Positions 26,918 through 39,100 of a stretch of 64,000 nucleotides of DNA are shown here, piece after piece (position 1 is the stretch's first letter; every line of letters starts with the position of its first letter). The DNA is taken from the NCBI GenBank assembly GCA_903825105.1, contig CAIJZI010000007.1, forward strand, positions 23,178 to 87,177, in the 5' to 3' direction. The notes below the pieces were generated by a model. It worked only from the letters and a program-made list of their open reading frames with translations. It did not search any database and was not told the origin of the DNA. The DNA comes from an uncultured bacterium (GTDB taxonomy: Bacteria; Patescibacteriota; Minisyncoccia; Phycocordibacterales; Phycocordibacteraceae). The translations under genes and the position numbers were made by a program.

Positions 26918-28861
26918 ATGGACACAAATACACTTCTCGAGGGCCCTATAACAATGACGCGTAAAGGCATTGGGTTCTTTAAGGTCGAAGGGGCTGATGA
27001 GGATCTTCTCATTCCCTCCGAGTGGACCAATCACGCGCTCTCGGGCGACATCGTGAAGGTCGCGCCAATGGGTAAATATAACGACCCTGCAGGGAGAATG
27101 CCGCCAAGAGATTCTGGAAAGGTTGTTGAAATAGTTTCGCGCGCGCGCGAGACATTTGTCGGCACGCTTATCGAAGAAAATGGCGTCACATTTCTCCAAC
27201 CTGATTATAAAAAGATGTATGTGCCACTCGTCATTCTTGATAAAGGGAAAGCAGAACTTGGTGACAAGGTGTTGGCGCGTCTCGGTGTCTGGGATACTGA
27301 TAAAGAATACCCGCTCGGCACGATAGAAGAAATAATTGGTCGAGCGGGCATGCACGAGACCGAGATGCGCGCGCTCGCGCTCGGTCAAGGATTCTCGCCA
27401 ACCTTTCCGCCCGGAGTCCTCGCTGAAGCGAAGAATCTTGAAGAAAACGGCGCAGCGATGCTTCTCGAAGAAACGAAAAATCCTGTGCGCAGAGATTTCA
27501 GAAAAATCAGCACTTGCACTATCGACCCAGTTGATGCAAAAGACTTTGACGACGCTCTTTCTGTTCAGAAACTTGAAAATGGCAATATTGAAGTCGGCGT
27601 GCACATCGCCGATGTTTCTTTCTTCGTGAAGCCCGGAAACGAACTCGACAAAGAAGCTCGCGAGCGAGCGACGAGTGTTTACCTTGTTGATCGCACGATC
27701 CCGATGCTCCCCGAGATCCTCTCGACTGATCTATGCTCGCTGATCCCCAATCAAGATCGTTTGGCTGTCTCTGCGGTCTTCACCCTCGACAAAGAGGCGA
27801 ACATTCTCGACTCGTGGTTTGGCGAAACGGTGATTCATTCTGACAAGCGCTTCACCTATGAAAATGCTCAAGAAGTTTTAGATAATGGAAGCGGGACTTT
27901 GCACGAAGAGCTCTCCACCCTTCTCGAACTCTCTAAAAAAATTCGTGCGAAGCGCCAAGCGAAGGGCGCGATTGAGTTCGACACGGCAGAAGTGAAGGTT
28001 GAATTAAATGCTGAAGGCGCTCCAATCGCGATTCATTTAAAAGAACGAAAGGCGACGAATCTTCTGATCGAAGATTTCATGCTGCTCGCCAACGAAGCGG
28101 TCGCGAAGCATCTTTCTAAATTAACCAGCGACGGCGGAGCCTCATTTGAATCGCTCTACCGAATTCACGATGCACCTGATGCTGACCGCATCGAGAATCT
28201 CGCGAACCTGCTCCGCGTGATGGGCTATAACTTAAAGACTGCGAGCGGGCGAGTCACGGGCGCAGAATTAAACAGGATGCTCGAATCGGTAAAAGGAAAG
28301 CCAGAAGAATATTTAGTAAAGACGGCGACCCTGCGCTCGATGAGTAAAGCGATTTATACGACACGCAATATCGGTCACTTCGGTCTCGCCTTCGACTACT
28401 ACACACACTTCACCTCGCCGATTCGCCGCTATCCAGACCTCATTATCCATCGCCTCGTGAAGTCGCACAGTGGCGGTGATCCGATTTCAAAACAAGAAAT
28501 GAGCGAATTCGATGCGCTCGCGCGCCACGCTTCAGAACGCGAAGTCGCCGCGGCTGATGCTGAACGCGATTCGATAAAAATGAAGCAAGTCGAATTCTTA
28601 ATCGGCAAAATCGGTGAAGAATTCGATGCAGTGATTTCTGGTGTGACCGATCGCGGGCTCTATGTTGAAGAACAATCAACGCATGCTGACGGAATGATAA
28701 ACATTCGCGCCGTGGGCGATGATTATTTTGAATATGACGAAAAGCATTATCGACTCGTCGGTCGCCGCACCCATAAAGCGTTTCAACTCGGCGACCCCAT
28801 CCGCGTGAAGCTCGCCGCCGCCCGCATCGCAGAAAAGGAATTGGATTTTGTACCGGTGTAA
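26918..28861 (+). CDS. rnr: ribonuclease R (RNB family 3'-5' exoribonuclease)
   Basis: cold-shock/OB N-terminus, RNB catalytic domain (..CTIDPVDAKDFDDALSV..), C-terminal S1 domain. Confidence 0.85.
   Translation: MDTNTLLEGPITMTRKGIGFFKVEGADEDLLIPSEWTNHALSGDIVKVAPMGKYNDPAGRMPPRDSGKVVEIVSRARETFVGTLIEENGVTFLQPDYKKMYVPLVILDKGKAELGDKVLARLGVWDTDKEYPLGTIEEIIGRAGMHETEMRALALGQGFSPTFPPGVLAEAKNLEENGAAMLLEETKNPVRRDFRKISTCTIDPVDAKDFDDALSVQKLENGNIEVGVHIADVSFFVKPGNELDKEARERATSVYLVDRTIPMLPEILSTDLCSLIPNQDRLAVSAVFTLDKEANILDSWFGETVIHSDKRFTYENAQEVLDNGSGTLHEELSTLLELSKKIRAKRQAKGAIEFDTAEVKVELNAEGAPIAIHLKERKATNLLIEDFMLLANEAVAKHLSKLTSDGGASFESLYRIHDAPDADRIENLANLLRVMGYNLKTASGRVTGAELNRMLESVKGKPEEYLVKTATLRSMSKAIYTTRNIGHFGLAFDYYTHFTSPIRRYPDLIIHRLVKSHSGGDPISKQEMSEFDALARHASEREVAAADAERDSIKMKQVEFLIGKIGEEFDAVISGVTDRGLYVEEQSTHADGMINIRAVGDDYFEYDEKHYRLVGRRTHKAFQLGDPIRVKLAAARIAEKELDFVPV
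28812..28861 (+). repeat. copy 1 (native) of rnr 3'-terminal repeat
   Basis: ..CGCATCGCAGAAAAGGAATTGGATTTTGTACCGGTGTAA; reiterated at 29391-29440 and 29783-29818. Confidence 0.8.
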
Positions 28862-28899: not shown

Positions 28900-29286
28900 T
28901 TGATGGATAAAAATTTTGACGAATGGAACGAGTGTAAAAAGAACCGTGACAAAAATGATATTGATATTTATTTTTACGAGCGTGAGATTTGGTGGTGCGC
29001 CATTGGTGTAAATGTAGGATTTGAACAAGATGGGAAAGGTGAGAGATTCGCCCGACCAGTGCTTATAATAAGAAAATTCAGCAAAAATGTATTTCTCGGC
29101 GTTCCACTTACAACAACAAAAAGAGAAAGTAAATATCATCATTCGTTTCCTTTTCTTGAAGCAGAGAGTACTGCGCTTCTTTCGCAAGTACGACTTTTTG
29201 ATTCAAAGAGATTACTTGTAAAAATGGGTAAAGTTTCAGAAAAAATACTTGAGGATGTGCGAGAAAGAGTACGAAAGATCGTCTAG
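28900..29286 (+). CDS. MazF/PemK-family toxin-like endoribonuclease, no adjacent MazE-like gene
   Basis: ..GFEQDGKGERFARPVLIIRKFSKNVFLGVPLTTTKRE.. aligns with MazF core (GSEQ..RPAVVLS....VPCTT). Confidence 0.5.
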   Translation: MMDKNFDEWNECKKNRDKNDIDIYFYEREIWWCAIGVNVGFEQDGKGERFARPVLIIRKFSKNVFLGVPLTTTKRESKYHHSFPFLEAESTALLSQVRLFDSKRLLVKMGKVSEKILEDVRERVRKIV

Positions 29287-29860: not shown

Positions 29861-32122
29861 CTATTTCGCCACGGCGACGGCTTCGTCGAACTTAATCGAC
29901 AGGAGTTTGGAAACGCCATCGCCGCCCATCGTGACGCCGTAGAGAATGTTGGTGCGGCTCATCGTCTCGCGGTTGTGTGTGATGACAATCAGCTGTGATT
30001 TCTTCGCGAGATTTTCTATCATATCGCCATAGCGACGACTGTTCGCTTCGTCGAGCGCCGCGTCGGTCTCGTCGAGAATGAGGAATGGTGGCGGGTTCAC
30101 CTGATTCATCGCGAAGATAAGCGCGATCGAAGTGAGTGCGCGTTCACCGCCCGAGAGCTGCATCAACGAGCGTATTTTCTTTTTCGGCAGACTGATCGTA
30201 ACTTCGATGCCAGCGCGCTGTTTCTCTTTTACTTCGTCAGCTGATTCCTCAGCATCTTCGGACTCATCTAATGAGTCCTCGACTTCCGGCTCCGGTTCTT
30301 CAAGAATGAGTCGCGCGGAGCCTCCGCCAAACATAAGAGCGAAATATTCACTGAAGGAGGCGTTCACGCGTGCGAGTCCATCACTAAAATATTTCGCGAG
30401 TTCGGTATCCAAATCGTGAATGAGCGCGCGAAGCCCCGCCGCCGACTTCGCGAGATCGTCGAGCTCGACTGCGAGGAATGTCTCTCTCTGCGAGACTTCT
30501 TTATGTTCCTGCCGAATATCCTCGCCGCTCCCGCCCGCTTCTTCGAGACGAATTTTATTTCGTTCCAATTTATGCTTGCGTTCCTCCTGCTCACGGCGTT
30601 CTTTCAATTCTTGATCTGAAAGGGTAATCGGTTCATACACCACTGCTTCTGTCCCAGCGACAGCGATTACCTCCCTCTTATTTCTTTCGAGATCTTCTGC
30701 AAAAACGGTCAATTCATATTCACGCGCTTCTGCCTTCGCGACCTCGCCTTCTTGATGTGCCTTTTCTTGTGCAACATCTAGAATGCGGCGGCGGATCTCG
30801 CGCCCCGTTTCTTCAAGCACGACCATCGCCTCGCGCGCTTTCGCGCGTGCTACTTCTGCCTTACCGAGCGCGTCAGACGCTTCTTCATATTTCTTCGCGA
30901 GCTCTGCGCGCTCTGCTTCAAGTTTAAAGGCTGCATTTTCTTCTTCAGAGAAATAATCGTCGCGTGGCGCGCCGTGTCGGGTGAAAAAGAATTTTATCGC
31001 CGAGCGAATCGCAGTCAGCGCGGCGCGCAATGCCTCGGGAGTAACCTCGGCACCTCCGGCGCCCAAAGCGCCTTCGGCTTGTTCGATTTGCTTCTCGATT
31101 TCTTGATGAAGAGACTCGATTTCTTCCCGTGGCACTTTCGCGTACGGCTCGTTCGCGACCCGCGTCGCGCGACGCTTTACCTCCGCGAGAGCACCTTCGA
31201 CGCGGCCGATCTCCCTAGAGAGCGCCGCGCGTGCCGCTGCGAGTTCTGACACTTCTTTTTCTGCATTTCGCAGCGTTTCAGTTCTCTTCATCGTCTCGCT
31301 ATCAGCCGACTGCGAATCGGTAATATGATCAAGCTCTTTATTCGCGGTAGCGAGATTCTCGGCCGCACGCATTTTTTCTTCAGCGACTTTTATTTTTTCG
31401 TGTGCGAGATACGCGTCTTCAATCGAGAAGTAAGTTTGCGCCGCGCTGATTAATTCTTTTCGCAGGTTTTCTGCTTTATCTAATTTTTCAACCTGCTTTT
31501 CTAGAAATTTTAGATGCGGCGCGAGCTCGCGACGCAGAGAATTGACTTGTGCGATATTTTCTTCAGTCTTTATGAGTTTTTTCTCAGCTTCTTGTTTTTT
31601 AAATTCGTAGAGTTTTAATCCGAGAGCATCCTCGAGCATCTCTCTGCGTTCGCGAGGGCTCGCGATAAGGATTCGATCTGCTTCGCCCTGCGAAATGATG
31701 TGGTGACCGGTCTCGCCGATGTTCGCGCCCGCGAGCAATTCTTCGATATCACGCAGGCGCACCCTTGACCCATTAATCGAATATTCACTCGTCCCGTCAC
31801 GGAAGACGGCGCGCTCGATCGTCACTTCATCAAAATCAATTTTGAACGCTCGACGCGAATTGTCGAAAATAACTGCCACCGCCGCGCGCGACGCGCGCGG
31901 CACCGAATGCGAACCGTTCCAAATTAAGTCTTCAGCGCGCTTGCCGCGCATACTCTTCATCGACTGTTCGCCCAGCGCGAAGCGAAAAGCTTCGGCGACA
32001 TTACTCTTCCCTGAGCCGTTGGGCCCCACGATCGCGGTCGCCGCGCTCGGGAAATCTAAAATCGTCTTCTTGGCGAATGACTTAAATCCGACGATCTCGA
32101 GTCGCTTTAACATTACCCTCAT
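29861..32122 (-). CDS. smc: SMC chromosome-segregation ATPase, short hingeless form (753 aa)
   Basis: canonical SMC N-terminal head (LKRLEIVGFKSFAKKT..IVGPNGSGKSNVAEAFRFALGEQSMKSMRG), long coiled coil, C-terminal LSGGERALTSIALIFA..ILDETDAALD; no hinge-like G-rich segment; rnc nearby as in rnc-smc operons. Confidence 0.7.
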   Translation of the reverse strand: MRVMLKRLEIVGFKSFAKKTILDFPSAATAIVGPNGSGKSNVAEAFRFALGEQSMKSMRGKRAEDLIWNGSHSVPRASRAAVAVIFDNSRRAFKIDFDEVTIERAVFRDGTSEYSINGSRVRLRDIEELLAGANIGETGHHIISQGEADRILIASPRERREMLEDALGLKLYEFKKQEAEKKLIKTEENIAQVNSLRRELAPHLKFLEKQVEKLDKAENLRKELISAAQTYFSIEDAYLAHEKIKVAEEKMRAAENLATANKELDHITDSQSADSETMKRTETLRNAEKEVSELAAARAALSREIGRVEGALAEVKRRATRVANEPYAKVPREEIESLHQEIEKQIEQAEGALGAGGAEVTPEALRAALTAIRSAIKFFFTRHGAPRDDYFSEEENAAFKLEAERAELAKKYEEASDALGKAEVARAKAREAMVVLEETGREIRRRILDVAQEKAHQEGEVAKAEAREYELTVFAEDLERNKREVIAVAGTEAVVYEPITLSDQELKERREQEERKHKLERNKIRLEEAGGSGEDIRQEHKEVSQRETFLAVELDDLAKSAAGLRALIHDLDTELAKYFSDGLARVNASFSEYFALMFGGGSARLILEEPEPEVEDSLDESEDAEESADEVKEKQRAGIEVTISLPKKKIRSLMQLSGGERALTSIALIFAMNQVNPPPFLILDETDAALDEANSRRYGDMIENLAKKSQLIVITHNRETMSRTNILYGVTMGGDGVSKLLSIKFDEAVAVAK

Positions 32123-32645: not shown

Positions 32646-32674
32646 TTGACTGATAACATTAGATGTGATATTGT
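32646..32674 (+). promoter_or_regulatory. putative sigma70-like promoter (TTGACT-17-TATTGT)
   Basis: seen directly, ~27 nt upstream of ATG 32701. Confidence 0.4.
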
Positions 32675-32700
32675 ATTCCCCAGAAAGGAAAGGGTGGCAA

Positions 32701-32991
32701 ATGCCAAACATTGTTATTGTTGGATTCAAACCTGGGGAGCTTCCAATTGTGAGAGGCCGGATTTCAATCATTGTCACAGGACTTGGAATTGCCGGGGCTG
32801 ATGGTGTTATCACTTGTTTCCAAAACGCATCAGCCGTAGATATAACAAAAGAACACAACGACGCCCCGTACGTCATCGTCCGCGACACAGAAGAAAATCG
32901 TGCAATGTTGATCGCGAGGGAGATCAACCTCAAACTGAATGTCGATGTCGAACTGGAAGTTCTCCACGCATTCTTGCCGAAGAGACATTGA
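32701..32991 (+). CDS. hypothetical protein (96 aa), orphan
   Basis: SD AAAGGAAAGGGTGG; followed by terminator near-identical to 32484-32522. Confidence 0.35.
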   Translation: MPNIVIVGFKPGELPIVRGRISIIVTGLGIAGADGVITCFQNASAVDITKEHNDAPYVIVRDTEENRAMLIAREINLKLNVDVELEVLHAFLPKRH

Positions 32992-33006
32992 GCATGTCCG
33001 CACCAC

Positions 33007-33046
33007 GAGCCGCCTGAACAAGGCGGCTCGATTCTTTTTACTTTTT
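33007..33046 (+). terminator. rho-independent terminator (duplicate of 32484 module)
   Basis: GAGCCGCCTGAACAAGGCGGCTC then GATTCTTTTTACTTTTTT. Confidence 0.75.
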
Positions 33047-33047
33047 T

Positions 33048-33093
33048 ACCGAAGTTTAACTTCGGTATTTTAGTGAGAGTCTAAAGCTCTCAC
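33048..33093. repeat. hairpin ACCGAAGTT-TAA-CTTCGGT plus AGTGAGAG-TCTAAAG-CTCTCAC hairpin (copy 3) overlapping rnc stop codon
   Basis: seen directly. Confidence 0.6.
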
Positions 33094-33779
33094 CAATTCA
33101 TTTTTTTAAGACCTGCTTCGGCGGCGAGCTGTTCGGCTTCTTGCTTACTCTGCCCTTCGCCCCGAGCGATTTCTTTTTCACCAATAAAAACACCGACGGT
33201 AAAGGTGCGTGCATGGTCCGGCCCCACTTCTGAAAGGGTTTCGTAGCGCGGCGTGATGCTCTTCTTTTCTTGTGACAATTCTTGGAATCGACTCTTCGCG
33301 TCCTGGTGTGCACCTTTTGAAATTATTTCGTCAATTTTTATATATACATTTTTTGCAATAAAAGCTTCTGCTTTTTCATATCCAGAATCCAAATAAATCG
33401 CGCCGATAATCGCTTCAAATGCGTCAGCGAGAATCACATCGCGCGCGCGGCCCGTGTCCTTCGACTCGCCTTTTGAAAGCAACATATAATCATTCACGCC
33501 AAGCGCCTTCGCGCTCTCGGCGAGCGACACCGTGTTTACCAAGGCCGCGCGATAGCTCGTGAGCTCGCCTTCTGATTTCGCGGGGAATTTTTTAAAAAGA
33601 AAATCCGTCACGACCAGTTCAAGCACAGCGTCACCGAGGAATTCTAATCGCTCATTATGACTGCCCACATAGTCGCGGTGTTCGTTTAGGTACGAACGAT
33701 GCGTCAAAGCCTCGATGAGAAGGTTTTGATTATTAAATTTGATATTGAGTTCGTTAGAAAATTGAAGAAAATCAGGCAT
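33090..33779 (-). CDS. rnc: ribonuclease III
   Basis: RNase III signature ERLEFLGDAVLELVV, C-terminal dsRBD. Confidence 0.9.
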   Translation of the reverse strand: MPDFLQFSNELNIKFNNQNLLIEALTHRSYLNEHRDYVGSHNERLEFLGDAVLELVVTDFLFKKFPAKSEGELTSYRAALVNTVSLAESAKALGVNDYMLLSKGESKDTGRARDVILADAFEAIIGAIYLDSGYEKAEAFIAKNVYIKIDEIISKGAHQDAKSRFQELSQEKKSITPRYETLSEVGPDHARTFTVGVFIGEKEIARGEGQSKQEAEQLAAEAGLKKMNW

Positions 33780-34719
33780 GTGCGCGTGGGAGCGTAGTCG
33801 TTACATTCGCGTGGTCGAGCAGCTTCTGTACCGCCTCCGTCACGATTGGGAGCATATCATCATAGAAGTTAAGGTCAATGATGTCCTTCAGCCGAAACCA
33901 CTTCGCGTCGTCGAGCCCGCCTTTACCCTGCTGGAGATGGAGCTGCTCGAATTCGGCACGCGCGAGGAAGTAGGTCACATGCTTTCGATACTTCCCCTTC
34001 TCCGGATGCGAAGCGACATACTCGTTTTCGCCGATCTTTCCTTCGAGTTTTATATCGATGCCGATTTCTTCTTTTACTTCGCGAATCGTGCCCTCTTCTG
34101 TAGTCTCGTGCGCGATAGTAGGATTGTCGCCAATCTTACCTTTTGAAAGAGTCCAGTGACCGAAAACATCGTGAACGAGAGCGAGATAATACTGCCCATC
34201 GTGTTTACAATAAACGACCGCGCCGCCGAGTCGCTGTATCGGAATGTCTTCATACTTCACTTTGGTACTCTTCTTTTCTGCCTGCTCATTCTTCCCTGGT
34301 TCGCCGAGCTCTTTGTAGACGGCACCCAAAACGCCGTTGACGAATCTGCCACTCGATTCTCCGCCAAAAGTCTTCGCGAGTTCGATCGCTTCATTAATCG
34401 CCACCTTCGCGGGCACTTGTGTTCGATCGGCGAAAAGGAGCTCGTAGAGCCCGATGCGCAGAATATTTCTATCCACAGGAGCGATGCGCTCCATCGACCA
34501 TTCAGGCGCAGCTTTTTCAATAACTAAATCGATGTCTTCTTTTTTTGATAACACGCCGAGCAGAAGCTTCTCCATAAACGGCCGGTCTGCATCATCACCA
34601 CAAAACTCTTTTACATTTCTTTCGAGAATAATGGCTGAATCTTTTTCTTGTGCATTTGTTGTGTCCCACTCAAAAAGTGTTTGGAGAACAACTGATCGGG
34701 CTAGGTGTCGGTTCGCCAT
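33772..34719 (-). CDS. nusB: NusB antitermination factor fused to C-terminal Nudix hydrolase domain
   Basis: NusB region (..VDRNILRIGLYELLF..AINEAIELAKTFGGESSGRFVNGVLG); Nudix box GKIGDNPTIAHETTEEGTIREVKEEIGI (Gx5Ex7REVxEExGI). Confidence 0.6.
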   Translation of the reverse strand: MANRHLARSVVLQTLFEWDTTNAQEKDSAIILERNVKEFCGDDADRPFMEKLLLGVLSKKEDIDLVIEKAAPEWSMERIAPVDRNILRIGLYELLFADRTQVPAKVAINEAIELAKTFGGESSGRFVNGVLGAVYKELGEPGKNEQAEKKSTKVKYEDIPIQRLGGAVVYCKHDGQYYLALVHDVFGHWTLSKGKIGDNPTIAHETTEEGTIREVKEEIGIDIKLEGKIGENEYVASHPEKGKYRKHVTYFLARAEFEQLHLQQGKGGLDDAKWFRLKDIIDLNFYDDMLPIVTEAVQKLLDHANVTTTLPRAHA

Positions 34720-34839
34720 GTAAAGATCTTATAAATTGAGTATAGCAGATATATACAAGTGGTAAGGGACAAGGTGTTAGTAACAAAAAAATCCCTTGCG
34801 GGATTTTCTTAAACCTTAAACCTTTTAGCTTAAACCTAA

Positions 34840-35190
34840 TTAGGCGCCGCCACCAAAACCACTGCGCGCTTTTGGACGACTCGTTGAAGAAACTTTTTTA
34901 GAAACTTTTGTTGCTTTTACATCTGCGTTCGCGTGCTCTTCTTTCGCATGATCGTGCGCGTGCTTCGCTACTGGCTCTGTGTTTGGGCCCTTCACTTTTA
35001 CCTCTTTCTGCGCTTTTGCCTTTGGAGTAAAGATCTGCTTCCCGCGGTACATACCGGTCTTTTCATCGAGACGGTGAGGCAAGCGGAGATTGCCGCTTTC
35101 TTTATCCTTAACGATAACCATATTCTTGAGCGCGTGATGCGACCGGCGATTACCGGTGTGCCCGCTCGTGTGACGCATTCGAATTGACAT
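34840..35190 (-). CDS. rpmF: 50S ribosomal protein L32 with ~60-aa Lys-rich C-terminal extension
   Basis: N-terminus ..GNRRSHHAL..DKESGNLRLPHRL..YRGKQIF parallels E. coli L32 (RRSHDAL..DKTSGEKHLRHHI..YRGRKV). Confidence 0.6.
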   Translation of the reverse strand: MSIRMRHTSGHTGNRRSHHALKNMVIVKDKESGNLRLPHRLDEKTGMYRGKQIFTPKAKAQKEVKVKGPNTEPVAKHAHDHAKEEHANADVKATKVSKKVSSTSRPKARSGFGGGA

Positions 35191-35279
35191 ACGGCTACCT
35201 TATCACACGCTGTGAAAAAAGAAAAGGACTCTCCTCTGCCGCGCAATTTCTGCGAAGCATTAGAGAGTCCTCAACATAT

Positions 35280-35465
35280 CTAGCTCAGATACACATGACC
35301 CGAGCAGCTTACCTTCACCACTCCGGCGTTGCTGACTTTCATGACTTCGAGTTCGTGGCATGCGACGCAACAATCAGTGTCCGGGACGAAGTCTCTGACT
35401 TCTTTCAATTCGTGACAACGATAACATTCTTTCTCTTCCGGCTCTGTAGATGTGTTGGTGGGCAT
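35280..35465 (-). CDS. small Cys-rich zinc-ribbon-like protein (61 aa)
   Basis: CYRC..CCVAC clusters; directly upstream of rpmF where yceD/DUF177 usually sits. Confidence 0.3.
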   Translation of the reverse strand: MPTNTSTEPEEKECYRCHELKEVRDFVPDTDCCVACHELEVMKVSNAGVVKVSCSGHVYLS

Positions 35466-35523
35466 AAGCTCCTCCTGTTCATGTTAAAACAACAATCCAT
35501 TTGGATAATACACCGAATATTAT

Positions 35524-36111
35524 TTAAATCAAATGTAAAAACGACTTGCGATGAATCGCGCAGGGGCCGTATTTTTTAAGCATTTCATAATGCAGTTTGG
35601 TGCCATAACCTTTGTGCTTCTCGAAGCCGTATTCAGGATATTTGATCGCGAGCTCGAGCATTAAACGATCGCGCAGAACCTTCGCCACGATAGAGGCGAG
35701 CGAGATAATCGGCACGAGGTCATCGCCGTTGATTATGGTCTCCTGTGAATATTCTTTTGGCGCATGTAACCCGCCATCGAGTAAAATGATGGATTTCGTA
35801 AACCCATCATTCGGCGCGAGTTTGTTCACACCGCGCGCGAGCGCTTTATTTATCGCCGGGACAATTCCCTCTTTATCAATCATTTCTGCACTCTCGAATT
35901 CAACAGCGAAACGCGCGTCGCCAAGGGCGACGCGTGCTTCCAGCATTTCAAAAATCTCCTCTCTTTTCTTCTCTGATAGCTTTTTAGAATCCGCGACACC
36001 CTTGAATTCTTTCATTACATCAAATCCCTCTGCCACTACCGCTACCCCAACAGCCACCGGCCCCGCGAGTGGTCCTCGCCCTGCCTCGTCAACTCCAATT
36101 AGAAACTTCAT
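35524..36111 (-). CDS. rnhB: ribonuclease HII
   Basis: GVDEAGRGPLAGPV active-site motif. Confidence 0.85.
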   Translation of the reverse strand: MKFLIGVDEAGRGPLAGPVAVGVAVVAEGFDVMKEFKGVADSKKLSEKKREEIFEMLEARVALGDARFAVEFESAEMIDKEGIVPAINKALARGVNKLAPNDGFTKSIILLDGGLHAPKEYSQETIINGDDLVPIISLASIVAKVLRDRLMLELAIKYPEYGFEKHKGYGTKLHYEMLKKYGPCAIHRKSFLHLI

Positions 36112-36133
36112 CTAGAAAGTATATACTGAATGT

Positions 36134-39100
36134 ATGGCTTCACGATTTATCCATCTCCACGCCCACAGCCACTACTCCTTCCTCCAGGCATTGCCGAAGA
36201 TTGATGAATTGGTAGAAAAAGCGAAGAAAGAAGGAATGGAGGCGATCGCGCTCACCGACGCCGGCAATATGCACGGCGCGATCGAATTCTACAAAGCCGC
36301 GATGAAGGCAGAGATTAAACCGATTCTCGGCGTCGACGCCTATCTCGCCCACCATTCGCGACACGACAAAGACGGCGACAGCTCGAAGCGTTCGCGCATC
36401 GTCCTCCTCGCAGAAAATAATGCGGGATATAAAAACTTACTCGAGCTTGTGACCAAGTCCTGGACTGAAGGCTTCTCTGATAAGCCGCGAATGGATAAAG
36501 AATTATTGCGCGAATATAGCGGCGGCATCATAGCGATTATTCCCTCGTTTGCTGGCGACATCGCACAAATGCTTCGCGCTGGTGACGAGAACGGCGCAGC
36601 TGCTGCGCTCGCAGAATTTAAAAATATTTTTGGAGAAAATAATGTGTTTCTAGAAATCACCCATCACCCCAAAGTGGCTGGCCACGAAGAATTACAGAAA
36701 AAAATAATCGCCCTCGCCCACTCGAGCGACACACCACTTGTCGCCCAGCACGATGTCTATTATCTGAGCCCTAATGATCGTGAAGCGACCGAGACGATGC
36801 GCCGTATCCAACAGGGCTCCCGCGGTAGAAATGAAGATGAGGACTTCTCTTTTATAAATGAATCAACGGCTAAAAAACTTTTTAAAGAAACTCCAGAGGC
36901 GATAGATAATTCAAAACTTATCGCAGACCGATGCTCGGTCGAACTCACGCTGGGAAAATTTGTCTTCCCACAATTCCCTCTTCCTCCGGGAAAAACGGCT
37001 GACGAGGTACTCCGCGAATTAAGCTTAAAAGGATTACAAAAACGCGGGCTCGCCGGAAGAGCCGATGTTATGGAACGCTTTGAATATGAGCTCGGCGTTA
37101 TTAAGATGAAGGGTTACGCCGCCTATTTCCTCGTCGTCGAAGACCTCGTGCGCTTCGCGCGCGAAAATAATATTTACACCAACATTCGAGGCTCGGTCGC
37201 CGGATCTTTGATTACTTATGTATTACAAATCACCAAAGTCGATCCCCTCGAATATAAAATCCCGTTCGAACGATTCCTTAACCCAGAACGCCCCTCAGCT
37301 CCCGATATTGATATGGACTTTGCCGACAATCGTCGCGACGAAGTAATCGAATACGCACGCAGTAAATATGGCAAGGATCATGTCGCGCAGATCGGTACCT
37401 TCGGCACAATGATGGCGCGAGCAGCAGTGCGCGATGTCGCACGCGCGCTCGGCCACTCCTATAGCACTGGAGATCGCATCGCCAAACTTATCCCGATGGG
37501 GTCACAAGGATTCCCGATGACGATCGACAAAGCGCTCAAGCTCGAACCAGAGTTAAAAACGCTCTACCAAGAAGACGACACTTCGCACGAAGTAATCGAT
37601 CTTGCGAAAAGTATCGAGGGCTGTGTGCGACATGTCGGTGTGCACGCCGCGGGCGTTGTGATCGCGCCAACGCCAGTGGTCGAGTGGACGCCGATTCAGC
37701 CCGATCCAAAAGGCACCGGGAAAATTATCACTCAATATGATATGTACTCCGTCGGTGAAGATGGCGTAGGGCTTACCAAATTCGATTTCCTCGGTATTAA
37801 AAATCTCTCGATTCTCGCTGATGTCGTCTCGCGCGTAGAAAAAAGTCGCAATATAAAATTCGACATCGAGGCGATTCCTCTCGATGATAAAAAGACCTTT
37901 GAGATGCTCGCGCGCGGCGAGACTGAAGGAACCTTCCAGCTCAACGGTTCGGGTATGACGCGCTGGCTCAAAGAGCTACGACCAACCACGATTCACGACA
38001 TCAACGCGATGGTCGCCTTATATCGCCCGGGCCCTATGGAAACGATTCCCCAATATATCGAACGAAAAAATAATCCAAAAATGATTCGCTATGTCGACGA
38101 GCGAATGAAAGAGTATCTCGATTTTTCTTACGGGCTGATTGTGTACCAAGACGATGTCCTCCTCACAGCGATTAAACTCGCCGGCTATTCGTGGCTTCAA
38201 GCAGACGCACTGCGTAAAGCGATGGGTAAAAAAATTCCAGCAGTTATGCAGAAGGAAAAAGAAAAACTGCTCACTGGCTTTGCTGAATACGGAAAACTGA
38301 AGAAAGAAACGGCGGACAAACTCTGGTCACTCATCGAGCCCTTCGCGGCGTACGGATTCGGCAAGGCACACGCCGCCTCCTACGGTCGTGTGTCGTATCA
38401 AACAGCGTATATGAAAGCAAATTATCCGGTCGAATACCTCGCCGCACTTCTCACCGCTGACTCGGGCGACACAGAACAAATTTCTATTTTCGTCGCCGAA
38501 GCGAAAAGAATGGGCATCACGATTCTCCCGCCCGATGTCAACGAAAGTGGCACAGACTTCACGGTGATTAAAAACGACGAGAGTGAACTTTTTGAGGAAG
38601 CTCCGGAGCGCGACGGCGCGAGGCCGAGCAAATTTTCAGCAGAAAATTATGCGTCTTCCGAAAAAAGCTCACCGAGTCGTGGCTTTATCCGATTCGGCCT
38701 CTCTTCAATTAAAAACTTCGGCGACGGCATCTCTGAAGCAATTATCGCTGAACGAGAAAAGAATGGCGCTTTCACTTCTCTTTCTGACTTTTTATCTCGC
38801 ATTGGTTCAAAGAACCTAAATCGCAAATCACTCGAATCACTTATTAAGTGTGGAGCACTCGATTCATTAAGCAATCAGATAGGCGGTAGAGGTACCCTCC
38901 TCGAAAATATCGAGAAGCTTCTCACTTTTCATCGCGAGTCAACCGCATCAGCACCACAAGATTCTCTCTTCGCCACCTTCGCGCCACCGTCACTCGTCCT
39001 GCCTGAAGGAAAGCAGATATCCCTTTTTGAAAAATTAATGTGGGAAAAAGAGCTGCTCGGCATTTATGTCTCTGGACACCCACTCGACGCTCACGAAAAG

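Follow-up and report, generated by a model that had tools for sequence, protein, structure and literature searches.

A gene on the minus strand of a 64-kb stretch of DNA from an uncultivated member of the Patescibacteria (the whole stretch is called the window below) raises the question of whether the antitermination factor NusB can truly be joined to a Nudix domain, and of what such a domain would do there. A preliminary description of the locus, in which the strand was left unstated, had read a complete NusB and, further along the same ORF, a Nudix domain whose box (REVKEEIGI) is intact. It proposed that Nudix chemistry, for example removal of 5' pyrophosphates or NAD caps from RNA or hydrolysis of alarmones, was recruited to the transcription elongation complex. 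Known NusB proteins are ~130-150 aa long and stand-alone; on the latter point that description is correct, if the NusB-like N-terminal domain of RsmB is set aside. A full-text literature search found no publication on a NusB-Nudix fusion among the top-ranked papers on NusB with Nudix or Patescibacteria, and the 2017 review of the Nudix clan leaves NusB unmentioned (PMC5389931). In public annotation the fusion proteins are labeled simply 'NusB', so their Nudix domain is currently invisible to annotation-based surveys.

NusB and Nudix domains in one polypeptide

The NusB::Nudix protein is a genuine single polypeptide, made up of a canonical NusB, a flexible linker of ~20 aa and a Nudix domain (Table 1). 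No stop codon interrupts the frame, and both domains are recognized by profile: Pfam NusB (PF01029) spans aa 7-136 (E 1.4e-35, 123 bits against a threshold of 23.1) and Pfam NUDIX (PF00293) spans aa 174-284 (E 4.4e-10; 40.1 bits, gathering score 21.1). A protein identical to the 315-aa fusion (P0001) is present in public assemblies, and both Pfam domains occur in every one of the 120 homologue clusters listed (identity 76-100%, length 297-333 aa), which were drawn from independent NCBI, ENA, JGI and Logan assemblies. A search of other genomes for the fusion, as the preliminary description had advised, gave at least 588 matches among species-representative genomes. NusB and Nudix form a single ORF in 78 of the best 80 of these, the two exceptions being one gene truncated by a contig end and one with a broken frame (L075). 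Some 37 divergent representatives of 50%-identity clusters (281-358 aa) likewise match both halves and keep the full fusion length.

Table 1. Features of the fusion gene and its neighbors in the window
Feature	Position (nt)	Strand	Evidence or remarks
nusB::nudix fusion ORF	33772..34719	-	315 aa + TGA stop; ATG start
NusB domain, aa 1-138, seven helices	34306..34719	-	Pfam, TIGR01951, AF2/Foldseek
Linker, aa 139-160, with E-P-G-K motif at aa 140-143 (nt 34291-34302)	34240..34305	-	pLDDT, conservation
Nudix domain, predicted Ap4A/ApnA-hydrolase type, aa 161-307	33799..34239	-	Pfam, PDB profile search, AF2, Foldseek
Extended Nudix box, aa 194-221, GKIGDNPTIAHETTEEGTIREVKEEIGI	34057..34140	-	E205, R213, E214, E217, E218, G220; 5-aa G-to-E loop insertion
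rnc (RNase III), 229 aa	33090..33779	-	ATG overlaps fusion stop by 8 nt (ATGCCTGA)
rpmF (ribosomal protein L32), 116 aa with C-terminal extension	34840..35190	-	Directly upstream; position conserved
rnhB (RNase HII)	35524..36111	-	Upstream, in conserved gene string

The N-terminal half matches NusB in sequence and predicted fold. It scores 128 bits against the NCBIfam nusB equivalog TIGR01951 (cut-off 88.35), over model positions 2-130 of 131. AF2 models helices at aa 2-20, 25-39, 46-58, 60-70, 81-95, 104-119 and 121-138, with pLDDT mostly >90. Foldseek matches this half to the Aquifex and E. coli NusB structures 3R2C, 3R2D, 3D3C and 3IMQ with TMt 0.83-0.89 and rmsd 1.5-1.9. Residues F126, D83 and F16 correspond to NusB F122, E81 and Y18 (E. 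coli/Aquifex numbering), whose roles in the pocket for BoxA U8 and at the interface with NusE have been described (PMC3177189). The BoxA-stacking F126 is invariant (116/116 sequences), D83, a conservative change from E81, is found in 114 of 116, and an aromatic residue, F or Y, occupies position 16 in 113 of them. An RsmB-like identity was considered and rejected: there is no methyltransferase domain, and the RsmB models TIGR00563 and NF011494 score 72 against 319 and 49 against 269 bits. The window holds no second NusB or Nudix paralogue.

The linker leaves NusB right after helix alpha7, the BoxA RNA site. It opens with the E-P-G-K motif and continues as a variable stretch modeled with low confidence (AF2 mean pLDDT 51 for aa 141-150, <50 for aa 146-150), and the arrangement of the two domains is not confidently predicted (pTM 0.70, disordered linker). 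Mean pairwise identity across the linker is 0.39; E140, P141, G142 and K143 are nonetheless shared by 57-58 of the 61 intact-box proteins, and this conservation suggests that the NusB-Nudix junction may itself be functional.

Affiliation of the Nudix domain

Judged by profile search and structural model, the Nudix half belongs to the Ap4A/ApnA-hydrolase clade, and hydrolysis itself is predicted. The top match in a PDB profile search is the Aquifex Ap4A hydrolase 3I7U (E 3.8e-30), followed by Thermus Ndx1 (6e-22) and by CT771, NUDT2 and the C. elegans enzyme (E ~1e-18 to 1e-19); the eight best PDB sequence matches, representing five proteins, are all Ap4A/Ap6A hydrolases or CT771. AF2 models the isolated domain with a pLDDT of 95, and Foldseek ranks 3I7U first for both models (TMq 0.79, TMt 0.88 and rmsd 2.0 for the domain model), with TMt of 0.84-0.89 against 3I7U and 1VC8. 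There are 452 PDB structure matches at E<=0.001, and all 50 of those listed are Nudix-family proteins.

The REVKEEIGI segment (aa 213-221, nt 34057-34083) is preceded by E205 exactly 8 residues ahead of R213, and E205-x7-R213-E214-V-K-E217-E218-I-G220-I221 fits its portion of the GX5EX7REUXEEXGU consensus exactly. Only the Gly-to-Glu spacing is non-canonical (G194-x10-E205 or G197-x7-E205 against G-x5-E), because of a 5-aa loop insertion typical of the clade. The Nudix helix has its full set of residues for metal binding and catalysis (E205, R213, E214, E217, E218). The REx2EE of the segment reported earlier is borne out as intact, and the loss of catalytic Glu residues that might have overturned the earlier reading is not seen in this protein. 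This protein also has the base-stacking Tyr (Y234, Y286) and phosphate-binding Lys (K193, K243, K246) of the ApnA type. Y286, which is invariant, is presumably equivalent to Tyr121 of C. elegans Ap4A hydrolase. Y234 lies 13 residues past the box, matching the 3I7U alignment; 112 of 116 sequences have it, and 3 others have F in its place. An adenine-stacking Tyr past the box is a conserved ApnA specificity motif (PMC5389931).

None of the NCBIfam equivalogs matches the Nudix half. Among the candidates rejected, the RppH model (NF001936) gives a partial match over aa 175-222 at 13.5 bits against a cut-off of 118. The NAD-decapping NudC model (NF001299) scores 21 against 158, with NudC structures at TMq 0.58-0.64 and rmsd >5, and MutT, NudB and other Nudix equivalogs fall far under their cut-offs. 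The activities suggested in the preliminary description fare unequally against these results. NAD-cap removal is left unsupported by the NudC score, and (p)ppGpp hydrolysis has no specific support. Removal of 5' pyrophosphate by a canonical RppH is likewise unsupported, and a 5'-ppp end is retained among the better-supported ligands, alongside Ap4A and Np4 caps, as would suit an ApnA-hydrolase-like domain.

Distribution of the fusion and loss of the catalytic motif

The best 80 of the at least 588 relatives in species-representative genomes all come from Patescibacteria of the Paceibacteria type, and the fusion is a lineage-wide trait of these bacteria. Mean pairwise identity is 0.52 in the Nudix half and 0.58 in the NusB half, and the Nudix half appears from these comparisons to be under purifying selection. 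Nevertheless, the full REx2EE is missing in 55 of 116 fusions, with loss of at least one catalytic residue, so catalysis is not a universally conserved function of the family. The complete catalytic set is found in 51 of 81 sequences (this protein and its 80 closest species genomes), and the state of the motif changes ~15-17 times on a rough neighbor-joining (NJ) tree. W189, K193, Y234 and Y286 are near-invariant across the 116 fusions. Because the catalytic motif is degenerate in so many members but the ligand residues are kept, the family would seem to conserve nucleotide binding and not necessarily catalysis; its shared role may be to bind a nucleoside polyphosphate, with hydrolysis probably retained in the lineage of this genome.

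Midpoint rooting of the NJ tree would make the degenerate box ancestral, a result that we distrust since stand-alone outgroup relatives have canonical boxes; these homologues are ~140 aa long. Two stand-alone relatives, P0156 and P0187, give no support to an unfused ancestral arrangement of nusB beside a Nudix gene: P0156 is flanked by integrase, methylase and Rep_O-like genes, and P0187 is on a 1-kb contig. In a further relative (P0252), the same type of Nudix domain is fused to Sigma70_r4 and DnaA_C helix-turn-helix domains.

Gene neighborhood

The fusion lies in the conserved gene order rnhB-rpmF-nusB::nudix-rnc-smc. In 77 of 80 related genomes rnc is downstream on the same strand, and in 39 of those 77 it overlaps the fusion or lies <=30 nt away; distant fusions likewise have rnc downstream on the same strand. 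The overlap of the fusion stop with the RNase III start suggests that the two genes may be translationally coupled. A promoter and terminator scan of positions 32900-36200 found, on the minus strand, neither a terminator nor a promoter in the rpmF-nusB gap, and the only minus-strand promoter-like matches in that interval fall inside coding sequence. By eye, a candidate hairpin can be seen at ~34786-34812, and it is absent from the output of the terminator scan. An Rfam scan of the window returned one tRNA only, with no rRNA, leader or BoxA.

Models for the function of the fusion

What might a Nudix domain do at the end of a NusB? Nudix chemistry recruited to the elongation complex, as first proposed, is plausible, and our tentative choice among the possible forms of it, which we hold at something short of even confidence, is that the tethered domain works, alongside RNase III, at the 5' end (ppp or Np4) of pre-rRNA that bears BoxA. 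The NusB half would do its usual job, pairing with S10/NusE on the BoxA of the pre-rRNA leader and entering the antitermination complex. The Nudix half would thereby be kept at high local concentration close to the 5' portion of that nascent RNA, where its pocket could bind the nucleoside polyphosphate at the 5' terminus, whether this is pppN or an Np4 cap left by Ap4A-primed initiation. In this lineage the end would be hydrolyzed to a 5'-monophosphate, a mark by which the leader, once cut by RNase III, may be directed to 5'-end-dependent processing or decay. Sister lineages whose box is degenerate would have a pocket that binds the end and does no more. The tether is one point in favor of RNA ends: a macromolecular substrate held by a partner domain should gain from tethering, and a free small molecule should gain little.

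Action of such a Nudix domain on the ends of RNA has precedents. NUDT2 turns PPP-RNA into P-RNA (PMC8616924), bacteria have Np4 caps, which the Nudix enzyme RppH takes off (PMC8833179, PMC7044304), and an RNA cap resembles a dinucleoside polyphosphate (PMC5389931). Against a tethered domain that works on RNA ends stand the 55 degenerate boxes among 116 fusions, the 5-aa G-to-E insertion, the sub-threshold similarity to RppH, a window with no rRNA operon or BoxA, and an arrangement of domains that AF2 does not predict with confidence.

A rival that we rate close, if somewhat unlikely, is that the Nudix half is a sensor. It would bind free Ap4A/ApnA or a related alarmone and tune NusB, and hence rRNA antitermination under stress, with the intact box merely resetting the signal. 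Repeated loss of catalysis on the rough tree alongside the invariant W189, K193, Y234 and Y286 is what such a sensor would lead one to expect. Degenerate-box Nudix domains do serve as effector-binding modules, as in TRPM2 NUDT9-H (PMC6461439, PMC4974056), and non-enzymatic roles of Nudix domains in transcriptional regulation are recognized (PMC5389931). The Nudix domain of the regulator NrtR (3GZ8) is a top structural neighbor, and the Sigma70_r4 and DnaA_C partners of P0252 point the same way. However, a pure sensor would have no need of the complete catalytic set found here and in 51 of 81 sequences, in the AF2 model no allosteric route is evident by which the Nudix domain could act on NusB across a disordered linker, and the idea presupposes Ap4A signaling in these organisms.

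It is also conceivable that the two halves are mechanistically uncoupled, and that a housekeeping Ap4A/ApnA hydrolase was fused to NusB only because co-expression, or a saving of sequence, pays in a reduced genome. The nearest relatives are indeed free-standing Ap4A/Ap6A hydrolases, ~140-aa stand-alone homologues keep canonical boxes, and the linker is disordered. We give this account little credence, since the fusion has persisted, and very rarely split, in hundreds of species at least, catalysis is lost in about half of the sampled lineages despite strong constraint on the domain, and the conserved E-P-G-K motif suggests a functional junction. A purely structural subunit, in which the Nudix fold is a protein-protein or protein-RNA scaffold in the antitermination complex and its nucleotide pocket is vestigial, would explain why many lineages can do without the catalytic motif. 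It has a parallel in SuhB, an enzyme fold that is a subunit of the E. coli rRNA transcription complex (PMC6614801). This seems quite improbable to us, as the best-conserved Nudix residues are those that stack bases and bind phosphate in Ap4A hydrolases and do not form an obvious alternative surface, and this lineage keeps the full catalytic set. Finally, a sequencing or assembly frameshift that merged two neighboring genes, the refutation envisaged in the preliminary description, has no supporting point beyond the broken frame in L075 and virtually no chance of being right against the 78 one-ORF species genomes, the 120 listed clusters and the ~37 divergent fusion-length representatives.

If the NusB-tethered Nudix pocket does meet RNA ends, a more elaborate version can be drawn, which we regard as unlikely in its entirety. 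The rRNA antitermination complex of Paceibacteria might include its own device for reading and erasing RNA 5' ends, whose pocket, tethered at the BoxA site, captures the pppN or Np4 end of the nascent leader. Where the box is intact, this would lead to co-transcriptional decapping or dephosphorylation coupled to RNase III; where it is degenerate, the pocket would form a non-hydrolyzing clamp that keeps the leader on the polymerase. The Nus factors are, to our knowledge, adaptor proteins with no catalytic activity of their own, and such a NusB, if real, would be the first Nus factor to act on the transcript as an enzyme in its own right.

Since the fusion is shared by hundreds of candidate-phyla bacteria, their rRNA transcription machinery probably carries its own module for handling nucleotides or RNA 5' ends. 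That a large class should have fixed a NusB with a domain for hydrolyzing or binding nucleoside polyphosphates implies a direct connection, undescribed in model organisms, between rRNA transcription and processing on one side and, on the other, either dinucleotide alarmones or the chemistry of RNA 5' ends (ppp or Np4 caps). The family is in effect a natural experiment, in which lineages with intact and degenerate catalytic motifs can be compared, and because the fusion protein is small and soluble-looking, in vitro tests are feasible even though the organisms are uncultivated.

Comparison with known systems

The NusB half resembles E. coli NusB (3D3B/3D3C) and the Aquifex NusB-NusE-BoxA complex (3R2C) in its seven-helix fold, its equivalog score and its F126, D83 and F16. 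It differs from known NusB proteins in the ~175 additional C-terminal residues, linker and Nudix domain, that follow straight after the BoxA-binding helix alpha7. RsmB/Sun, a 16S rRNA methyltransferase, also has a NusB-fold domain covalently attached to an enzyme-type domain, and RsmB models match aa 7-156 here, but the partner in our case is a Nudix domain and the NusB half scores as a true NusB. We know of no other well-known case in which a NusB-fold RNA-binding domain is joined to an RNA-directed enzyme.

With Aquifex aq_158 (3I7U), Thermus Ndx1 (an Ap6A hydrolase, 1VC8), Chlamydia CT771 and NUDT2, the Nudix half shares the fold (TMq 0.72-0.79), the W-x-x-P/S-K-G strand, REx2EE, the Tyr 13 residues past the box and the Tyr of the C-terminal helix. 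Unlike those enzymes, it is fused to NusB, has the clade's 5-aa Gly-Glu insertion, is only ~25% identical to them, and has relatives in the fusion family of which many have lost catalytic residues. We propose RppH as a working analogy: its substrates are RNA ends with a 5'-ppp or an Np4 cap, and its action on them triggers processing or decay (PMC8833179, PMC7044304). RppH is, however, free-standing and untethered, and Bdellovibrio RppH (3EES) is merely a distant, partial match (1.5e-8).

In combining a degenerate box with a preserved ligand pocket, many members of the family recall NrtR and the NUDT9-H domain of TRPM2, in which catalysis was lost in evolution and binding retained (PMC6461439). 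The Nudix domains of NrtR and TRPM2 bind ADP-ribose, in contrast to the ApnA-hydrolase-like domain described here, whose box is intact in this genome. SuhB is an enzyme-fold protein in the same Nus-factor complex of E. coli (PMC6614801). The likeness is one of analogy only, as SuhB has an inositol monophosphatase fold unrelated to Nudix and is a separate polypeptide, whereas the Nudix domain of these bacteria is part of NusB itself.

Architecture and spread of the NusB-Nudix fusion

The preliminary description placed a NusB and a Nudix domain in one ORF (table below), and this holds: Pfam matches both within an uninterrupted frame of 315 codons (NusB, aa 7-136, E 1.4e-35; NUDIX, aa 174-284, E 4.4e-10, 40.1 bits vs a gathering score of 21.1). 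NCBIfam likewise assigns the N-terminal half to NusB (nusB equivalog TIGR01951, 128 bits vs a cut-off of 88.35), and the C-terminal half belongs to the Nudix superfamily, where it groups with ApnA hydrolases. The Nudix box proposed there, REVKEEIGI, lies at aa 213-221, with E205 at the canonical spacing of 8 residues from R213, and the Gly-to-Glu part of the box is lengthened by a 5-residue insertion, GKIGDNPTIAHE, that is characteristic of the clade. No second NusB or Nudix gene was found in the 64-kb window. The NCBIfam Nudix equivalogs all scored far under cut-off (MutT1 24 vs 475, NudC 21 vs 158, RppH 13.5 vs 118), and membership failed for RppH, NudC and RsmB.

The fusion is real. An identical protein is present in public assemblies, and both Pfam domains occur in 120/120 homologue clusters listed (76-100% identity, 297-333 aa; NCBI, ENA, JGI, Logan). 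A search of GTDB representatives, one genome per species, by Nudix-domain pattern confirmed at least 588 relatives; every one of the best 80 is a Patescibacteria/Minisyncoccota MAG, with labels such as Paceibacterota, Parcubacteria, Kaiser-, Adler-, Zambryski-, Nomura- and Lloydbacteria, and 78 of the 80 carry both matches within a single ORF, which upholds the frame continuity on which the earlier claim depended. Two genes joined by artefact can be dismissed as an explanation. The two exceptions are one locus at a contig end and one with a broken frame. Of the 79 loci that lie clear of contig ends, only the latter (L075, 3574-4426) lacks an unbroken ORF across NusB and Nudix; the cause could be a frameshift, pseudogene formation or faulty assembly.

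When 1.84 billion cluster representatives were searched exhaustively by phmmer with only the Nudix half as query, 545 matched at E<=1e-3; about 37 of these are as long as a full fusion (281-358 aa) and match in both halves, the NusB N-terminus being clipped by start calls in some. Nudix identity among the latter falls as low as 28%, marking the fusion as old and diverse in its lineage. Source names, where given for the homologue clusters, read 'NusB' only; source annotations overlook the Nudix half, and we found no description of any NusB-Nudix protein in the searchable literature. In one divergent fusion (P0241; locus L087 5001-5873, contigs up to 0.93 Mb, read on a 407-kb contig), divergence of the Nudix half is such that precomputed Pfam gives NusB only; its box is EVIQKELGI, and the order rnhB-rpmF-nusB::nudix-rnc-smc is kept. 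Many MAGs with a Paceibacteria-type gene string (L005-L084) bear the title 'uncultured Candidatus Saccharibacteria bacterium'; the relatives nearest to them carry the labels Paceibacterota, Parcubacteria or Kaiserbacteria, and the titles look like generic or mistaken taxonomy assignments.

Gene neighbourhood

The fusion sits in the string rnhB (RNase HII), rpmF (L32), nusB::nudix, rnc (RNase III), a small opposite-strand ORF and smc, an order kept in a 76%-identical relative, in the 80 species genomes and in very divergent fusions. The fusion TGA and the rnc ATG overlap by 8 nt in the window (ATGCCTGA). A same-strand rnc follows the fusion in 77/80 genomes, overlapping it or within 30 nt in 39 of the 77 and within 150 nt in 67. 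The fusion's conserved partner is thus RNase III, which cuts the stems of pre-rRNA leader and spacer, and from what is established for NusB and this enzyme the fusion would belong to rRNA transcription and processing.

Features of the nusB::nudix neighbourhood (window coordinates)
Feature	Position	Strand	Remarks
RNase R/II-type (RNB) exoribonuclease gene	26918-28861	+	precedes MazF/PemK-like toxin gene
MazF/PemK-like toxin gene	28900-29286	+	directly 3' of RNB gene
SMC homologue	29861-32122	-	753 aa; SMC_N aa 4-738
108-aa ORF	32665-32991	+	between smc and rnc, opposite strand; no Pfam match
GC-rich hairpin	33006-33030		after 108-aa ORF
nusB::nudix ORF	33772-34719	-	ATG start
rpmF-nusB spacer hairpin	34786-34812		candidate terminator
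rpmF (L32)	34840-35190	-	116 aa; Pfam match aa 6-54 only

Beyond its Pfam match the L32 continues as a Lys/Ala-rich C-terminal extension, which brings it to about twice the usual L32 length; the L32 proteins of relatives are 79-125 aa long. The extent of SMC_N implies a much shortened coiled coil, and SMC homologues of relatives are 700-745 aa. A hairpin read in the rpmF-nusB spacer, AAAATCCC-GCAA-GGGATTTT followed by minus-strand TTTGTTAC, looks like a candidate intrinsic terminator after rpmF; it was not reported by the consensus terminator scan. If it terminates, nusB::nudix-rnc would be a separate transcription unit. A strong hairpin, GC-rich and with a T-run (CGAGCCGCC...GGCGGCTCG ATTCTTTTT), comes after the 108-aa ORF, and relatives have two small unannotated ORFs at the position of that ORF.

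The NusB half and the linker

In the AlphaFold2 full-length model (mean pLDDT 91.3), aa 2-138 form seven helices that match NusB of E. coli and of the Aquifex NusB-NusE structures with BoxA RNA or dsRNA (3R2C/3R2D; TMt 0.83-0.89, rmsd 1.5-1.9 A). It is mainly NusB that reads BoxA, over a stretch from its N-terminal amino group up to the interface with NusE; on alpha7, the C-terminal helix, F122 stacks on U8, E81 reads the base, and Y18 belongs to the NusE interface (PMC3177189). Their equivalents are F126, invariant in 116 fusions, D83 (114/116) and F/Y16 (113/116), and the N-terminal R4 and R8 are nearly invariant too. Given the modelled fold and these conserved sites, we treat this half as a predicted working NusB.

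Helix alpha7, on the RNA-binding face, runs straight into the linker (aa 139-160). The linker opens with E-P-G-K(D/E), a motif conserved in 57-58 of the 61 fusions whose box is intact and more loosely in others; then comes a variable Lys/Glu-rich stretch that AF2 leaves unplaced (pLDDT <50 at aa 146-150). Whole-protein pTM is 0.70, with no confident prediction of inter-domain geometry.

The Nudix half: relatives, catalytic motif and pocket

With an alignment of fused and stand-alone Nudix relatives as profile, the best match was Aquifex aeolicus Ap4A hydrolase 3I7U (E 3.8e-30), then Thermus Ndx1, an Ap6A hydrolase (6e-22), Chlamydia CT771, human NUDT2 and the C. elegans Ap4A hydrolase (~1e-18 to 1e-19), mycobacterial MutT1/Rv2985 (a diadenosine polyphosphatase) and Dcp2. 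Foldseek agrees with full-length and domain-only models (the latter pLDDT 95): 3I7U (TMq 0.79, TMt 0.88, rmsd 2.0) is followed by Rv2985, MutT1, the NrtR Nudix domain, Ndx1, CT771 and the C. elegans and human enzymes, with NudC and NUDT12 clearly poorer fits. In alignment the Nudix half and 3I7U share the W-x-x-P-K-G strand, REx2EE, a Tyr 13 residues past the box and a Tyr in the C-terminal helix. A conserved adenine-stacking Tyr downstream of the box is a specificity determinant of ApnA hydrolases, and the likeness of caps to dinucleoside polyphosphates has been pointed out (PMC5389931).

Among other carriers of the domain, P0156 (L085 5001-5453) is a stand-alone 150-aa relative (40% identity, canonical box) beside integrase, DNA methylase and Phage_rep_O-like genes, the neighbours usual in mobile elements or prophages. 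Three metagenomic proteins, each a single sequence that could be chimeric, combine the Nudix subtype with Sigma70_r4 and Bac_DnaA_C (P0252), or NusB and Nudix with a 300-aa N-terminal extension weakly matching a cold-shock domain (P0213) or with a weak Rho_N-like tail (P0139).

The catalytic Glu residues of the preliminary description are present on alignment: the window protein keeps the complete set, as do 50/80 closest species genomes (best 80 of at least 588), including most, not all, of those with the 5-aa insertion. Across a biased sample of 116 full-length fusions (the window protein, 78 species genomes and 37 divergent cluster representatives), R-E-x2-E-E is kept in 61 and not in 55; V, I, K, G or A stands in place of the 'RE' Glu in 50, and substitutions affect the first 'EE' Glu in 23 and E205 in 25. 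A rough neighbour-joining tree requires ~15-17 changes of motif state, so the losses are recurrent, and since stand-alone relatives have canonical boxes, we infer that the intact box is ancestral. The 'RE' Glu is presumably E58 of human Ap4A hydrolase, and the second 'EE' Glu is Ndx1 E50 in the profile alignment. Inactive mutants made for crystallography, E58A and E50Q, fall at these positions (PDB titles).

Despite these losses the Nudix domain is nearly as conserved as NusB in the 116 fusions (mean pairwise identity 0.52 vs 0.58, with 0.39 for the linker and 0.15 for the C-terminal tail). W189, T190, K193, Y234, K246, Y250, W274, F275 and Y286 are near-invariant whether the box is intact or degenerate, which argues that what the family preserves is a predicted nucleoside-polyphosphate pocket, not necessarily hydrolysis.

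Proposed mechanism and alternatives

The architecture, the identity of both halves, the tethering at the BoxA face and the linkage to rnc are settled, as, at the level of alignment, are the window protein's intact catalytic set and the family-wide conservation of the pocket. Beyond these, the NusB half would bind S10 and BoxA of the nascent pre-rRNA leader and thereby hold the Nudix pocket near the 5' part of the same RNA, where it could take the 5'-terminal nucleoside polyphosphate, either pppN or the Np4 cap left when RNA polymerase initiates with Np4N. In the window's lineage the pocket would hydrolyse this end to a monophosphate, readying the leader for processing or decay with RNase III. 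There is precedent in the Ap4A hydrolase NUDT2, which converts PPP-RNA to P-RNA (PMC8616924), and in bacteria RppH, a Nudix enzyme, as well as ApaH and YqeK can take off Np4 caps (PMC8833179, PMC7044304, PMC13010140). We advance this tethered 5'-end mechanism as a whole only tentatively.

The main rival, which we consider rather unlikely, makes the Nudix domain a sensor of free Ap4A or a related nucleotide that modulates NusB. The recurrent loss of catalysis among fusions favours it, and the Nudix domains of NrtR, a top structural neighbour, and of TRPM2 (PMC6461439) are precedents for sensing. A housekeeping Ap4A hydrolase uncoupled from NusB is improbable, and we give equally little credence to a Nudix half that is purely a structural subunit, for which SuhB offers an analogy (PMC6614801).

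The organisms that carry the fusion are uncultivated. The fusion itself should be moderately surprising to a transcription specialist, and it is readily testable. Its nearest architectural precedent is RsmB, in which a NusB-like domain is joined to an RNA methyltransferase.
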